Origin: a virus | UHGV virus genome: UHGV-0124295 | Reading direction: 5' to 3' (one strand) | DNA: 13,031 nucleotides | In this document: positions 1,494-11,852 of the stretch, piece by piece | Numbering within the stretch: position 1 is the first letter of the stretch | How the letters are laid out: each line of letters begins with the position of its first letter | The notes under the pieces: generated by a model | The model's input: only the letters and a program-made list of their open reading frames with translations | Told to the model about the DNA's origin: nothing | The model's database searches: none | Program-made: the position numbers and the translations under genes

Positions 1494-2362
1494 GCAGCTT
1501 CCCTCCCGAAGTCGAAATAAAGCTGCCCTCCAAATATTTCGCATGACTCAGAACAAGAGCCGGTATCGAATCTTTTAGCTCGTACCATGTCCTGATACAG
1601 GGCTTGATAATCATTTTCTGAATACATTTTCGCGATACCATCCAGCGACATTCTTCCTCGGTACATAATCTCCTTTGGTGTTTCCCGATGTCCGTCACGC
1701 ACATGCGATCCCGTGATGACCTCATTAAAAACACGCTGCAATCCCTCCTCATCTTTACAGGCAAGTCCGATTTTTTGCGTTGATTTTTTAATGCAGAATA
1801 TGCAGTTACCGAGATGTTCCGGTATTTGCAAATCGAATGGTTGTTGCTTCCACCATGCGAGGATATCTTCCTTCTCAAAGTCTGACAGTTCAGCAAGATA
1901 TCTGATTCCAGGCTTTGGCTTTAGCCGCTTCGGTTCATCAGCTCTGATGCCAATCCACGTGGTGTAATTCCCTCGCCCGAAATGGTCATCACAGTATTTG
2001 GTGAAGGGAACGAGTTTTAATCTGTCAGTGCAGAACGCGCCGCCGACGTATGGAGTGCCATATTTTTTTACCATATCGATAAATGGCTTCAGAACAGGCA
2101 GTCGCGTCTGAATATCCTTTGGTTCCCATACCGTATAACCATTTGGCTGCCCAAGCTCTGGGTTGATATCAACCTGCAATACGGTGAGCGGTATATCCCA
2201 GAACTTCACAACTTCCCTGACAAACCGATATGTCATTGGATGTTCACAACCTGTATCCATGAAAACGTAATGCACGTCTTCACCTGCCCGTCGCTTTTGC
2301 TCCATTAGCCAGAGCAAATATGCTGACGTCCTGCCACCGGAGAAACTAACGACATTTATCAT
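1490..2362 (-). CDS. ninC: NinC, PAPS-reductase-like/phosphoadenosine phosphosulfate reductase family protein (290 aa)
   Basis: Track ORF 1490..2422; the true start is the internal [18 protein letters not shown]... at 2362..2360, which overlaps the ninB stop (ATGA). From memory near-identical to lambda NinC. Confidence 0.85.
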
Positions 2363-2799
2363 GCAGCCCTGTCTCCCCATCGCGCTTTCCACTCCAGAGC
2401 CAGTCGCGCTTCGTCTGACCACTTAACGCCACGCTCTGTACCGAATGCCTGTATAAGCTCTAATAGCTCCGCAAATTCGCTTACACGCATCCTGCTGGTT
2501 GACTGGCCTATTACCACAAAGCCATTCCCGGCAAGGTTAGGAACAACATCCTGCTGCTTTAATGCTGCGGTAAACACACACTTCCAGCTTTCTGCATCCA
2601 GCCAGCGACCATGCCATTCAACCTGACGAGAGACGTCACCAAGGCAAGCCCAAAGCTTTCGATTCTGGTCTAAGCTGCGGTTGCGTTCCTGAATGGTTAC
2701 TACGATTGGTTTGGTTGGGTCTGGAAGGATTTGCTGTACCGCGTGAATAGCGTTTTGCTGATGTGCTGGAGATCGAATTTCAAAGGTTAGTTTTTTCAT
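2359..2799 (-). CDS. ninB: NinB/Orf recombination mediator (146 aa)
   Basis: MKKLTFEIRSPAHQQNAIHAVQQILPDPTKP... matches lambda NinB (Orf) from memory. RBS GAGGGA lies upstream of ATG 2799. Confidence 0.9.
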   Translation of the reverse strand: MKKLTFEIRSPAHQQNAIHAVQQILPDPTKPIVVTIQERNRSLDQNRKLWACLGDVSRQVEWHGRWLDAESWKCVFTAALKQQDVVPNLAGNGFVVIGQSTSRMRVSEFAELLELIQAFGTERGVKWSDEARLALEWKARWGDRAA

Positions 2800-2992
2800 G
2801 ACTTCCCTCTCTAACAGATTTCAGGTTATTCCACTCCGTTACCGCACTGCGATAATTCGCGGCCGCCACAGCAGCGTGGTTAGCGCAGTAGATTTGGCAC
2901 CCGTTCTCCATGTCGAATATTGTCGGTGATTTTCCGCATTTACATTTTTTGGCACGCGGTGCGTCTGAACACATTCCGTTAACGGTGTCCAT
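2780..2992 (-). CDS. Hypothetical Cys-rich small protein at the ren position (70 aa)
   Basis: ORF MDTVNGMCSDAPRAKKCKCGKSPTIFDMENGCQIYCANH... with a strong RBS (GAGGGGGA, 7 nt before ATG 2992..2990). Overlaps the ninB start by 20 nt. Not similar to lambda Ren as far as I can recall. Confidence 0.5.
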   Translation of the reverse strand: MDTVNGMCSDAPRAKKCKCGKSPTIFDMENGCQIYCANHAAVAAANYRSAVTEWNNLKSVREGSHEKTNL

Positions 2993-3017
2993 CAGAATCC
3001 CCCTCGTTCTTAATCCA

Positions 3018-3046
3018 ATAAAAAAGGGCTACTGTGTAAATAGCCC
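3018..3046 (-). terminator. Rho-independent terminator after the helicase gene (tR2-like position)
   Basis: On the minus strand: GGGCTA-(9-nt loop)-TAGCCC followed by TTTTTTAT; lies between the helicase stop (3074) and the 70-aa ORF start (2992). Confidence 0.55.
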
Positions 3047-3073
3047 ATGTTATTATCTCAGTGATGTAGATGG

Positions 3074-4450
3074 TCATACGTCAGCCCCTTGTGCATATCG
3101 TCTGCCACGTGCAGCGGGTGCATTTGATGTTGTGCAAATCTGTCTGGCTTCATCCTGATCACATGCAACAAAGTGTCCGTTGCAGAACCGCTGGTAAACC
3201 GTACCAAGCGAGCCAAAACGGTTTTTCGTCACAATGATTTCAGCAAATGGCGCGGCGCTACTGTTCTCGTCATATACCGCTTCCCGATAGAGCATGATGA
3301 TTGAGTCTGCGTCCTGTTCAATGCTTCCTGAATCACGCAAATCTGCGTTTGTCGGGCGTTTGTTTGGTCGCTTCTCAACATCGCGTGAAAGCTGACTTAG
3401 GGAGATAACTGGCGTTTTCAGGTCTTTCGCCATCGCCTTCAGGCTTCCGGAGATGTGAGCAATTGCGAGGTCGTTGCGGTCTGCTTTCGGCTTCTCAATC
3501 AGGCCAAGATAATCCGCCATGATGAGTGAGAGGTTTGGATTTTCCTGTTTGTGCCGTTCTGCGATTGAGCGAATTTCTTCGACCGATAACCGCGAGGCAT
3601 CGACTACCCATACATCCAAATCTGCAAGCTGACTCATGCCGTTAGCAACACGCGCCCAGCCTTCGTCATCCATCGATGCAGGATTTCGCAGTACGCTAAC
3701 CGACATCCTCCCGGCGTTGGCAATGCTTCGCTCTGCAATCTGCAATGCGCTCATTTCCATCGAGAAAATCAACACTCCGCGCCGGACATCAGAACCAGGA
3801 ATAACGCGGCTTGCCACGCCTTCGGCAATCTTCAGCGCCAGTTCGGTTTTCCCCATACCAGGACGAGCGGCGATAATCACCAGGTCTTCTGCGTTCATCC
3901 CTCCGGTGATAGCGTCAAGTTCTTCGATTCCGGTCTTCAGGGTATCTGACTCTTCTCCGTTCCTCAGACGCCTGTCAAGCGTGTCAGTGTAGTCGGTGAT
4001 GATTTCCCCTAACCGTACAGGTTTAACCTCGTCACGGGGCTTTCTGATGGCTGAAAGACGCTTTACAAGCTCATCCATCGCCTGACTCGATGCGTCGATG
4101 GTTCCGCTCTGAATTGGTTCACGCATTTCATCCATGATTTCCAGCACCAGACGGCGGTGATAGTTATCCGCGACCATTCCGGCATATCCCTTCAGGTTTG
4201 CGGCACTCGGGCAGTTTTTGCTGGTCATCAGGATTGACGTGAAATGCTCCTCTCCGCACGCCTCGGCAACCATCAGCGCGTCGATTAGGTTTCTGTTTCT
4301 CGCCTGCTTGCGGATAACCTCGAAGGCTTTCCGGTAGAGCGGAATTGAAAACGCTTCCGGCTCAAGCGTTGCCAGAACGTCACTGGCGGTTGGAGTTAAT
4401 CCACCAATCAGCAGGCCACCGATAACGCTCGCTTCGATATCCTGTCTCAT
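3074..4450 (-). CDS. Replicative DNA helicase, DnaB family (P22 gp12-like)
   Basis: 458-aa ORF with Walker A ([16 protein letters not shown]) and DnaB-like N-terminal and RecA-like C-terminal architecture. ATG 4450..4448 overlaps the stop of the O-like gene (ATGA). Confidence 0.85.
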
Positions 4451-9562: not shown

Positions 9563-10270
9563 ATGGATTTGAATAAATTCGATGAGCCATTCGGCCCTGA
9601 AGATATCGAATGGCGAATACAGCAAAGCGGTAAAACACGCGATGGCAAGGTGTGGGCTATGGTGCTGGCTTATGTAACGAACCGGGCAATCATGAAACGC
9701 CTGGACGATGTTTGCGGCAAAGCAGGATGGCGCAATGAATACCGCGATATTCCCAACAACGGCGGCGTTGAATGCGGCATATCAATAAAGATTGATTCCG
9801 AATGGGTAACCAAATGGGATGCTGCTGAAAACACGCAGGTAGAAGCCGTCAAAGGTGGTCGTTCCGGTGCAATGAAGCGCGCTGCCGTTCAGTGGGGAAT
9901 CGGTCGGTATCTGTATAACCTTGAGGAAGGTTTCGCACAAACATCTCTCGATAAAAAGCAGGGGTGGCACAGGGCAAAACTGAAGGATGGAACAGGATTT
10001 TACTGGCTCCCTCCATCGCTGCCGGGATGGGCAATCCCAGCATCAGATAACAAACCATCACCAGAAAATACCAACCAGAAATCTCCATCGGTTGACTGCG
10101 AACAAATCCTGAAAGACTTCAGCGATTATGCATCAACAGAAACTGACAAGAAAAAACTCATCGAGCGTTATCAGCGTGACTGGCAATTAATGGCTGGCAA
10201 CGAGGAGGCGCAGGCTAAATGCGTTCAGGTAATGAACATCAGAGTTAACGAACTAAAACAGGCGGCATAA
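9563..10270 (+). CDS. Rad52/Rad22-family single-strand annealing protein (Sak/Erf-position recombinase)
   Basis: 235 aa; motifs AYVTNRAIMKRLDDVCGKAGW and GAMKRAAVQWGIGRYLYNL typical of the Rad52 N-terminal annealing domain. RBS GAGGTG. Sits immediately upstream of ssb. Confidence 0.7.
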   Translation: MDLNKFDEPFGPEDIEWRIQQSGKTRDGKVWAMVLAYVTNRAIMKRLDDVCGKAGWRNEYRDIPNNGGVECGISIKIDSEWVTKWDAAENTQVEAVKGGRSGAMKRAAVQWGIGRYLYNLEEGFAQTSLDKKQGWHRAKLKDGTGFYWLPPSLPGWAIPASDNKPSPENTNQKSPSVDCEQILKDFSDYASTETDKKKLIERYQRDWQLMAGNEEAQAKCVQVMNIRVNELKQAA

Positions 10271-10777
10271 ATGGCAAGCAGAGGCGTAAATAAGGTGATT
10301 ATCCTTGGTCGGGTAGGACAAGACCCGGAAGTTCGATACTCACCATCAGGTACAGCGTTCGCTAACCTGACAATAGCCACGTCAGAACAATGGCGAGATA
10401 AAAATACTGGCGAGCAAAAGGAATTGACTGAATGGCATCGTGTTGCTGTATCCGGGAAACTGGCTGAGGTCGTGGGGCAGTATGTGAAAAAAGGTGATCA
10501 GATTTATTTCGAGGGAATGCTGAGAACCAGAAAGTGGAAAGACCAGTCAGGGCAAGACCGTTACACAACCGAGGTTCATGTCGGAATTAATGGCGTGATG
10601 CAAATGCTTGGCGGCATTGGCGACAGCAAACAACAAGCAGCCAGCAGGCAATCACAGAAGCCACAGCAGCAATCATCACCAGCACAACACAACGAACCTC
10701 CGATGGATTTTGACGACGATATACCCTTTGCACCAGTAACTCTCCCCTTCCCTCGTCACGCTATTCACGCAATTTAA
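10271..10777 (+). CDS. ssb: Single-stranded DNA-binding protein
   Basis: 168 aa; OB-fold N-terminus [44 protein letters not shown]... and Gln/Pro-rich linker. The acidic tail MDFDDDIPF is present but followed by 15 extra residues. Confidence 0.9.
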
Positions 10778-10790
10778 TCAGGAGAAAATC

Positions 10791-11087
10791 ATGCCAGCGC
10801 CTCTGTATGGTGCGGATGACCCGCGCCGCTGTTCCGGCAATTCCGTATCGGAGGTGCTGGATAAATTCAGAAAAAACTACGACCGGATAATGTCGCTACC
10901 GCAGGAAACGAAAGAGGAAAAGGAATTTCGCCACTGTATATGGCTTGCAGAGAAAGAAGAACGCGAGCGAATTTACCAGACATCAATCCGACCATTCCGT
11001 AAAGCCACATATACCCACTTCCCTGAATATATCGACCCGCGCCTGCGTAATTACCGCTCACGCTATGGCGCTATCAGTAATGACTGA
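10791..11087 (+). CDS. Hypothetical protein (98 aa)
   Basis: RBS GGAGA 5 nt before ATG 10791; same strand and tightly packed with neighbours. Confidence 0.5.
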
Positions 11088-11097
11088 GGAATTTACC

Positions 11098-11265
11098 ATG
11101 AGAGGACTTGCATACAATCCCGGAATTCTTCCGGCAGAAATGATTATTCGTCAACGCGTAAAGCCAATGCCATCGAGAGAGGAATTGCTTAAGAGAAATA
11201 GTTTCGGTTCTGTTAATGACAACAAATATCTGAATGCAATGTGGCGCAAAGGAGGCAAGCAGTGA
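11098..11265 (+). CDS. Hypothetical small protein (55 aa)
   Basis: ATG 11098 with RBS GAGGA 7 nt upstream; it is the 3' part of track ORF 10945..11265, whose 5' part overlaps the previous gene and is rejected. Confidence 0.4.
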
Positions 11266-11852
11266 GCAACATCGACAAACAGGCGCAGCGTAAAGCAAAG
11301 GTAATCACAAAGGAATTTGTTGAGGAACACCTTCACTACGATGGGAAGGATTTTTTCTGGAAGAAGCGCGAACCAAGTTCGTTTTCTGACAGCCGCACAT
11401 GCAAGGTTTGGAATACTCGAATTGCAGGGAAGCGGGCCGGAGGAATCAGCGCTCAAGGTTATGTAGAAATTCAAATCAAAGGGAGTCGATATAAGGCTCA
11501 TAGATTAGCGTGGTGTCTTGTTCATGGCGATATACCAACAGACATGCAGGTTGATCACATTAACCACGACCGAACTGATAACCGAATAGAGAATCTGCGC
11601 CTTGTTGATAATCAGGGAAACCAAAAGAACTCTTCGATACGAAAGGACAACATTGGAGGCTGCACAGGTGTTACCTGGAATCCTAGCCATAAAAGATGGA
11701 TTGCCTACATACGCGAAAATGGTAAGCACAAGCACATTGGTAGCTTCATTAAATTCTCTGATGCTGTAAGAGCAAGAGAGGAAGCTCAGGCAAGGCTTGG
11801 ATTCCACATGAATCACGGCGCCGCTGGCATTCGCATCAAAGGAGGTGAGTAA
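11262..11852 (+). CDS. HNH endonuclease with C-terminal AP2-type DNA-binding domain
   Basis: HNH_3-like motif [16 protein letters not shown]...[27 protein letters not shown] and AP2-like [40 protein letters not shown]. Probable GTG start at 11262 after RBS GGAGG; the track start is GTG 11241. Confidence 0.78.

Follow-up and report, generated by a model that had tools for sequence, protein, structure and literature searches.

The DNA analysed here, a viral genome stretch of 13,031 nucleotides (the window), carries an ssb gene between a gene for a Rad52-like annealing protein and the anti-RecBCD gene abc2 (Table 1). The stop codon of the annealing-protein gene directly abuts the ssb ATG. On the other side, the ribosome-binding site of abc2 (AGGAG, 10,780–10,784) lies just 3′ of the ssb stop, within a gap of 13 nt between the two genes. 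The surrounding prophage is lambdoid, of P22/HK75-like type, with ssb in its early-left operon. The combination of ssb, annealing protein and anti-RecBCD has been described as the "HK75-type" Rec module in a survey of 325 lambdoid phages, and the SSBs of such modules are without experimental study according to that survey (PMC12315714). The same gene is already named ssb in mEp235, HK75 and RefSeq, and databases label its product as a plain SSB.

Table 1. Features of the ssb locus in the window, with the evidence for each
Feature	Position	Strand	Evidence
Rad52/Rad22-family (Erf-like) single-strand annealing protein gene	9563..10270	+	Pfam PF04098, E = 2.3e-26; annotation in mEp235
ssb, lambdoid (P22/HK75-type) prophage recombination module	10271..10777	+	ORF, translation, Pfam, PHROG, PDB
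OB-fold domain, residues 6–104	10286..10582	+	Pfam match, AF2 model
Predicted intrinsically disordered linker, residues 115–141, hypervariable	10613..10693	+	AF2 pLDDT, entropy
Acidic tip, residues 142–153, internal rather than C-terminal here	10694..10729	+	sequence, entropy, pN/pS
HNH insertion/recombination site	10702..10732	+	replaced by cassette in Huey
15-residue post-tip extension, residues 154–168	10730..10774	+	sequence, conservation, predicted disorder
45-bp block CCAGTAACTCTCCCCTTCCCTCGTCACGCTATTCACGCAATTTAA	10733..10777	+	HNH endonuclease genes of Sf6, Huey, IME10 and N7 end in the identical block
ssb stop codon TAA	10775..10777	+	sequence
abc2, anti-RecBCD gene	10791..11087	+	Pfam PF11043, E = 4e-62

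The ssb gene product and its internal tip

Translation of the ssb reading frame gives a protein of 168 aa that starts with MASRGVNK and is followed by a TAA stop. It matches the Pfam SSB family PF00436 over the OB fold (E = 1.6e-36; 125 bits against a cutoff of 26), PHROG 44 SSB and, in the PDB, E. coli SSB 1eqq (E = 7e-58). The 1eqq alignment covers residues 1–153 only; it ends at the acidic tip common to both proteins, and the 15-residue extension lies outside it. Of the conserved residues for ssDNA contact and tetramer formation, W41, W55, H56 and W89 are present (E. coli Trp40, Trp54, His55 and Trp88). The equivalent of E. coli Phe60 is a Ser (VAVSGK versus VVLFGK), as in most of this phage SSB clade (consensus VVISGK). 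An AF2 model built on an alignment of 109 sequences reproduces the OB strand pattern with a pLDDT of 80–90. The value falls below 50 for residues 115–168 and to about 30 in the tail, which is disordered in the model and shows no intramolecular docking.

The linker and the acidic tip (D-F-D-D-D-I-P-F) of PF00436 SSBs are both present. The terminal position of the tip Phe, a further trait of the family, is missing, and since 15 residues come after Phe153, the product appears to be a bacterial-type SSB by fold that is a variant in its defining interaction element. The preliminary description had stated that the frame runs 15 residues past DDDIPF to a stop at 10,775; our translation agrees, its coordinates are accurate, and the segment it singled out (10,703–10,777) corresponds to Met145 through the stop. 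No Pfam model matches the post-tip extension, a PDB sequence search with the 21-residue tail returned no match, and none of the solved SSB structures found in the PDB search extends past residue 153. The E. coli chromosomal SSB (1eqq/4mz9) resembles this protein in its OB fold (about 70% identity), its disordered Gln/Pro-rich linker and its identical tip. It differs in having 178 aa and a terminal tip, whereas the protein described here has a much shorter linker and an internal tip and is encoded by a prophage-borne, non-essential gene away from uvrA.

Conservation of the extension

A sequencing artefact or a lost stop codon had been offered as possible origins of the long frame. Neither agrees with the recurrence of an in-frame extension of the same length in hundreds of independent genomes, in viable phages and in diverged alleles. 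Two complete E. coli chromosomes carry the gene at 100% identity, and 173 records reach at least 99%; its identity to ssb of the viable phages mEp235, HK75 and mEpX2 is 99.6–99.8%; and Salmonella phages epsilon34 and g341c, whose ssb is 89% identical, encode the same extension. Of 5,426 complete E. coli genomes, 297 match a 100-nt probe over the DIPF/extension junction with a coverage of at least 80%. Because of this recurrence in independent genomes and viable phages, the chance that the extension is a sequencing or assembly artefact, or a recent stop-codon loss private to this genome, is practically nil, and nothing speaks for it beyond the prior expectation that SSBs end at DIPF.

Comparison with ssb genes of related phages and prophages, a check that the preliminary description had proposed, indicates that the extension is conserved. 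A search of 5.8 billion proteins yielded 109 full-length SSBs among the best 120 cluster representatives, and all 109 carry exactly 15 residues after [IV]PF, at 66–93% identity to the query. Their hosts include Klebsiella, Citrobacter, Enterobacter, Salmonella, Kluyvera, Pluralibacter, Phytobacter and others. Substitutions in the extension are conservative: P155 and L158 are invariant, and F160, P161, R162 and H163 are 95–99% conserved. Mean column entropy over these homologues is 0.33 bits in the OB fold (residues 1–114), 1.64 in the linker, where the majority residue has a frequency of 0.55, 0.23 in the tip and 0.47 in the extension. The extension thus seems to be about as conserved as the OB fold, with a hypervariable linker before it.

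At the nucleotide level, 57 distinct alleles from viral contigs and other loci gave a pN/pS of 0.12 for the tip and 0.34 for the extension, and an identical extension peptide is encoded with up to 9 synonymous differences. These patterns argue for purifying selection on the extension as a peptide. It had also been considered that the extension might prove common and functionally neutral; it is common, but the selection seen here speaks against neutrality. The strong constraint on the tip itself suggests that it remains in use, and such conservation of DIPF would sit awkwardly with a tip that is simply disabled.

The 65 distinct variants of the extension follow the consensus A-P-[VI]-[GT]-L-[PQM]-[FY]-P-R-H-[AT]-I-[HY]-[AV]-[IL]-COOH. 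Their length is 15 residues in 53, 14 in seven, 16 in four and 12 in one. In nearly all of them the last five residues are non-polar save for His, Tyr or Asn at position −3. The extension in the window is the commonest variant (49 of about 110 loci) and matches the consensus of tip and extension in both sequence and length. A Salmonella cluster of 588 members has a representative with 12 of the 15 extension residues (...PRHAI). Being conserved and, in the model, disordered, the extension bears what looks like the signature of a short linear motif.

An HNH gene at the tip/extension junction

The 45 bp at the end of this ssb recur at the end of a different gene. In phages Sf6, Huey, IME10, N7 and CurroJimenez, the SSB ends in ...DD(S)DIPF or ...DDEIPF followed at once by a stop, an HNH gene starts 9–15 nt past ssb, abc2 comes next, and the same 45 bp encode the last 14 residues of the HNH protein. 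For Sf6, the RefSeq record already mentions an unbroken run of 14 residues in gp26 that is identical to part of an E. coli SSB. The Rad52-like/SSB/Abc2 module of the window recurs in Sf6 and Huey, and their HNH proteins (phrog_2340) occupy the same ssb–abc2 interval; there, however, the shared peptide has no acidic tip before it. The HNH/zinc-finger core (...AHHCDYSKP..VMWLC..CH.EWH...) is absent from the window, which has the 45 bp alone in common with phrog_2340. The Huey ssb is otherwise 98–100% identical to this one and of the window type up to ...GAACCTCC; beyond this point its final nine codons are written differently (8 of 27 nt differ), and the cassette found here consists of the recoded tip (MNFDDEIPF), a stop, a ribosome-binding site and the HNH ORF. 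Partial matches to the junction probe begin at query position 39/40.

HNH homologues normally stop soon after ...HKxNxPIY or ...NKPIY. The 14-aa tail is confined to an E. coli/Shigella subset, and its variants (..AIYAI, PITLPF..HAL) mirror alleles of the ssb extension. Tail-less homologues (49–86% identical) lie 8–11 nt downstream of ssb genes ending in D(S/Q)DIPF and a stop. Because these tail-less homologues also follow an ssb with a free tip, the module appears to exist in two forms, an SSB with free tip plus HNH and an SSB with extension. The tailed HNH genes are then best read as recombinants that run into a former ssb extension, the HNH tail being a relic to which the extension is, on the comparative evidence, ancestral. 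Recombination of the HNH gene exactly between DIPF and PVTL in Sf6 and Huey would have restored a canonical SSB end and left the extension as the tail of the HNH protein. The HNH protein may act in homing, with the conserved DNA that encodes the tip as its target for cleavage, or it may be a legitimate nuclease of the Rec module, as has been suggested before (PMC12315714).

Two other histories were considered and rejected. The window allele could have been the deletion scar of an ancestral ssb–HNH arrangement; the extension is far more widespread and diverse than the tailed HNH genes, and HNH homologues are tail-less. The extension could also have been the 3′ end of P22 abc1 or of another upstream gene; homology to P22 begins only at the ribosome-binding site of abc2.

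The junction also bears on whether the conserved element is DNA rather than peptide, for instance an HNH homing or recombination site, a module boundary, or a scar of HNH excision that has spread. The 45 bp are 100% identical among the window, epsilon34 (ssb 89% identical) and Sf6, whose ssb is much more diverged; they form a module junction beside the highly conserved abc2; and rearrangements cluster at the site, chimeric ORFs included. Outside the lambdoid group of E. coli and Salmonella, however, very different DNA encodes the same peptide and other genes lie downstream, and the peptide occurs in plasmids, ICEs and virulent phages that have neither abc2 nor this HNH gene, a family that is itself ancestrally tail-less. 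No promoter, terminator or stable RNA structure was found over the extension region, and explanations at the level of DNA or RNA were dropped for this reason. The pattern of synonymous change appears largely to refute an element acting as DNA, to which we assign an extremely small chance.

Since Sf6, Huey and other HNH-carrying phages have an SSB that ends at DIPF, the extension appears to be dispensable for phage viability. The same phages touch on a further possibility, namely that the extension is a pro-peptide cut off after Phe153 in vivo, freeing a canonical DIPF-COOH tip; such a cut could, for instance, time or activate the protein. Cleavage would reconcile the strict conservation of DIPF with the need for a carboxylate, and HNH insertion at exactly this peptide bond gives a viable canonical SSB. 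On the other side, we know of no cytoplasmic endoprotease of such specificity in enterobacteria, and no protease gene co-occurs in the neighbourhoods examined for extended ssb (about 110 loci), although a metalloprotease gene does lie beside the IncN ssb described below. We regard processing of this kind as highly improbable.

Distribution over mobile elements and proposed function

OB-fold peptide patterns identified 80 ssb loci in species-representative genomes; these are mostly housekeeping ssb genes and served as a control. The extension is absent from 73 and present in seven. Our end-finding script gave no result for two of the 73, L036 among them; L016, an extended locus, was read by hand. 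The premise of the preliminary description that SSBs normally end at DIPF is confirmed by 71 of the 73 loci without extension, in which a DIPF-type end is followed immediately by a stop. Linkage to uvrA was seen for 67 of these 73 loci versus none of the seven extended ones, and no uvrA-linked housekeeping ssb with an extension was found among the 80.

Two of the seven extended loci are phage-like: one in Mixta (tail AYIGLQYPSHAIHSI) adjoins an AAA_24/Sak4-like ATPase, and one in Providencia (tail APIGLPYPRHAIYVI) adjoins RecT. The other five are ICE-like, lying beside topoisomerase III (TopB), DUF3577 and transfer genes, with the tails IGFGYGVPKSAIHAL or LGHGYGVSRKAIYAIS. In a tblastn search with the 30-residue tail, 112 phage records and 61 plasmid records had matches over at least 80% of its length. 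Tip and extension were read directly in the IncN plasmid pNDM-ECS01 and in Cronobacter phage JK004, and the SSB of IncT plasmid Rts1 has the tail ...DFNDDIPFAGLGASFGKHTIHAIC. A gene for a divergent SprT-family metalloprotease adjoins the IncN ssb.

The tail is also found on proteins of other kinds. The phrog_4477 proteins of virulent myoviruses of about 145 kb (alia gp036, BIS47_17) have the same tip and extension and are not PF00436 SSBs; their scaffold recurs across 273 phage records. Vibrio phage F27 has an annotated SSB that ends in tip and extension and gives no Pfam SSB match. The PHROG profiles that match these tails (18154, 7364, 2544 and 4477) stop at DIPF. Taken together, the comparisons show that in Enterobacterales and Vibrio tip and extension form a module typical of ssDNA-binding proteins encoded by mobile elements, namely phages (temperate as well as virulent), plasmids of the IncN and IncT groups, and ICEs. 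Housekeeping SSBs lack this module. The tail is portable, being found on at least three protein scaffolds. Homology of the tails across all element classes is inferred from their register; it stays at this level because the ICE and Rts1 tails, of 16 residues, have only the C-terminal half of the motif in common.

Accessory SSBs with a canonical tip exist on mobile elements as well. Many plasmid ssb genes in PLSDB encode such bacterial-type SSBs, P1 Ssb, Sf6 gp27 and ES18 gp48 are further examples, and in P1 and most plasmid SSB matches only the tip half of the 30-aa probe was aligned (query residues 2–15). The SSB of the F plasmid has a canonical end. A profile search of 1.84 billion representatives returned mostly canonical or fragmentary SSBs. 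It also revealed other post-DIPF extensions, e.g., SNYELRSVI, RQYQHRQLY, AQHMKHTFI, APIGLQYPALLSVM and MGLGYDTARSAIYAL, and these yielded no functional clue. A post-DIPF extension was not found described in a full-text literature search of incomplete coverage, and an earlier description is possible.

Bacterial genome-maintenance proteins are generally taken to find ssDNA through one universal handle, the free C-terminal Phe of SSB, and added residues are expected to disable this hub. The pocket that receives the SSB C-terminus has three parts, a hydrophobic pocket for the terminal Phe, a basic lip for its α-carboxyl group and a basic ridge for the Asp residues, and an SSB that loses this Phe no longer binds, with lethal effect (PMC10164576). 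By making the DIPF tip internal, the extension would remove the free α-carboxylate on which canonical partners (ExoI, chi, RecO, RecQ, PriA, RecG and others) anchor, and it would present a new docking surface of aromatic, basic and aliphatic residues with a non-polar C-terminus. The SSB-coated ssDNA of the element would be steered in this way off the standard host interactome and toward a specific partner. We hypothesize, at roughly even odds, that the extension acts as a short linear motif without fixed structure: through it the tip becomes internal and the docking of SSB is redirected, probably to a host factor. The preliminary description had suggested a phage-specific way of altering SSB interactions; the comparative evidence favours altered interactions, but the occurrence of the tail in plasmids and ICEs removes the restriction to phages.

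The gene directly upstream of extended ssb is Rad52-like in 54 of about 110 loci and encodes an AAA_24/Sak4-like ATPase in 16; elsewhere it is RecT, RdgC, DUF2303 or DUF3577, and the downstream genes are equally varied. A dedicated partner encoded by the element beside ssb was rejected, the neighbours being too diverse, and for the same reason any single element-encoded partner is unlikely. Because the elements combine the motif with many different recombinases and scaffolds of their own, the partner is most likely a conserved host protein; such a partner, or else an intrinsic property of the tail, would be the more parsimonious explanation. A bolder version of the docking hypothesis is possible, although we lean against it: tip and extension would be a portable, horizontally exchanged host-targeting motif that unrelated elements have grafted onto their own ssDNA-binding scaffolds, and it would engage or block one conserved host protein of DNA metabolism or proteostasis through an internal-tip mode without the Phe carboxylate.

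There is precedent for a phage SSB tail that recruits a specific recombination partner. The SSB of phage HK620, HkaK, binds its cognate annealing protein Sak4 through an NDYPPF tail, and removal of the six tail residues lowers recombineering 10-fold (Hutinet et al. 2018, PMC5928155). HkaK differs in that it is not a bacterial-type SSB and its tail is terminal and ends in Phe, with no post-tip extension described. Among known phage systems, a second comparison is with T7 gp2.5 and T4 gp32. Both have disordered acidic C-terminal tails that serve protein–protein contacts and the regulation of DNA binding; these tails are unrelated in sequence, acidic to the end (gp2.5 ends in Phe) and without a basic/aliphatic extension.

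Known docking sequences were also compared. The β-clamp-binding motif reads QL[SD]LF or QLxLxL, as in QLSLPL of Hda. The hydrophobic pattern of PVTLPF, PIGLPY and PIGLQY fits it, but position 1 is an invariant Pro rather than Gln, and the ICE tails (GFGYGV) do not fit either; we take this as a resemblance only and no more than a lead.

The main rival to a docking motif is a degradation or turnover tag, in which the C-terminus (...AIHAI, ...AIYVI, ...LINVI, ...FLHCF) would serve as a degron, with Lon, ClpXP/ClpAP or FtsH as the candidate AAA+ protease of the cytoplasm, and a short-lived SSB would spare host replication. The non-polar character of the last five residues fits such a tag, as does the shortened Salmonella representative, which keeps a terminal ...HAI. 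Parsell, Silber and Sauer reportedly observed in 1990 that non-polar C-terminal pentapeptides destabilise cytoplasmic proteins. ClpX recognises MuA via ...RRKKAI and ssrA-tagged proteins by ...LAA, and the C-terminal Lon tag of SulA is rich in His, Tyr and hydrophobic residues. A match to the ClpX degrons was nevertheless rejected: ...RHAIHAI, ...AIYVI and ...FLHCF have the non-polar terminus alone in common with them, with neither LAA nor a basic cluster followed by AI. Conservation covers all 15 positions, beyond the need of a generic non-polar end, and making their main ssDNA-binding protein unstable would bring virulent phages little benefit. On balance, we consider a turnover tag unlikely.

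Alternatively, the extension could be a passive cap with the sole role of blocking the α-carboxylate of Phe, such that ExoI, RecJ, RecQ and RecO are not recruited to the ssDNA of the element; its sequence would then matter little. The dependence of SSB-Ct pockets on the α-carboxyl group (PMC10164576) agrees with this, and so do the confinement of the extension to mobile elements, its absence from the essential ssb and its association with annealing-protein modules, which would profit from protected ssDNA. A cap would not need a fixed length, near-invariant residues or a pN/pS as low as that of the extension across diverged hosts, and a silenced tip should drift, yet the tip is the most constrained segment. 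A purely passive role is decidedly unlikely.

These results bear on the biology of mobile elements in several ways. They reveal a large, selected class of mobile-element SSBs in which the handle used by genome-maintenance proteins is systematically extended, counter to the textbook expectation for SSB tails. The locus itself is a clean natural case in which recombination has brought an HNH gene into the end of a conserved one. In recombineering, the performance of annealing protein and SSB pairs taken from HK75-type modules could depend on the presence of the extension. Partner discovery is directly testable with a minimal peptide of 15 residues. An internal-tip binding mode, if real, would add a second way of recognising SSB tails, one not described so far, and if the motif retargets or shields the ssDNA of the element, it may represent a general strategy of mobile DNA for managing host nucleases, recombination and SOS signalling.

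Rearrangement of the ssb–abc2 interval

Chimeric open reading frames were found in public genomes at the position equivalent to the end of the prophage ssb gene and the spacer between it and the anti-RecBCD gene abc2 (database proteins P0131, P0134, P0144, P0173, P0180 and P0183). Some, such as P0134 (178 aa), join the C-terminal half of the HNH protein to an N-terminal SSB OB-fold, and in others a Rv2179c-like 3′-5′ exonuclease is joined to the HNH N-terminus. The contents of the interval also vary, being empty or occupied by an exonuclease gene, an HNH gene or both. The ssb–abc2 interval is a hot spot of rearrangement. In several complete E. coli genomes, the HNH gene lying between ssb and the exonuclease gene was missed by RefSeq (PGAP) annotation and, because of this, the 45-bp block shared with the 3′ end of ssb falls outside any annotated feature there.

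Two genes 3′ of abc2, in the same early-left operon, a 203-aa reading frame is a candidate second HNH (homing-type) endonuclease, unrelated to the one found in the interval.

Coordinates of features in the window and in fetched loci
Feature	Sequence	Position	Strand	Remark
SSB residue 61 (Ser)	window	10451-10453
Chimeric ORFs	public genomes	equivalent of window 10700-10790
203-aa ORF, HNH_3 domain	window	11241-11852	+	HNH_3 E=4e-18; AP2 domain weak
HNH gene missed by RefSeq (PGAP)	L217 (E. coli SWYH.B349aT)	1558-2046		likewise H98-H100
Integrase adjoining sbcB	L216 (E. coli S1)	15268-18052
SprT-family zinc metalloprotease gene	L208 (IncN pNDM-ECS01)	2569-3354		divergent; adjoins extended ssb

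Variation within the SSB

The extension beyond the DIPF tip is nearly always 15 residues long. In P0001, a Salmonella enterica SSB representing a 588-member cluster, it comprises 12 residues ending ...PFPRHAI; one of two tandem HAI units was apparently lost (CACGCTATT/CACGCAATT), and the C-terminal tripeptide is unchanged despite the shortening. Other, shorter extensions were found on the distant SSB representatives P0242, P0268, P0293, P0299, P0300 and P0343 (APVPFY, SNYELRSVI, RQYQHRQLY, APEFR, AQHMKHTFI and FPAFNPG). In several of them, an aromatic residue or His again occurs together with a basic residue, and the end is hydrophobic; this recurrence hints at a broader class of post-DIPF extensions.

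Within the OB-fold, residue 61 is Ser at the equivalent of E. coli SSB Phe60, an aromatic residue in contact with ssDNA. Most SSBs of the same phage clade share this Ser (consensus VVISGK), and Phe is kept in the IncN, Rts1 and JK004 SSBs.

Neighbours of extended ssb genes

The E. coli S1 genome has an ssb 100% identical to that of the window, and there the integrase of the prophage adjoins sbcB. This gene encodes exonuclease I, a classic nuclease binding the SSB tip; the adjacency is probably a mere matter of attachment-site position.

In ICE-like loci (L007, L011, L040, L057 and L062), the gene directly 5′ of ssb encodes a DUF3577 protein ending in ...AENSF, ...DPNSF or ...ADNSF. Its terminal Phe resembles the SSB tip and, therefore, a protein with a free Phe is paired with an extended SSB in these ICEs.

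In pNDM-ECS01, the extended ssb and its SprT-family neighbour belong to the leading or anti-restriction region of this IncN plasmid. In this one context, the metalloprotease could be relevant to the alternative that the extension is a pro-peptide, removed after Phe153 to free the canonical tip.
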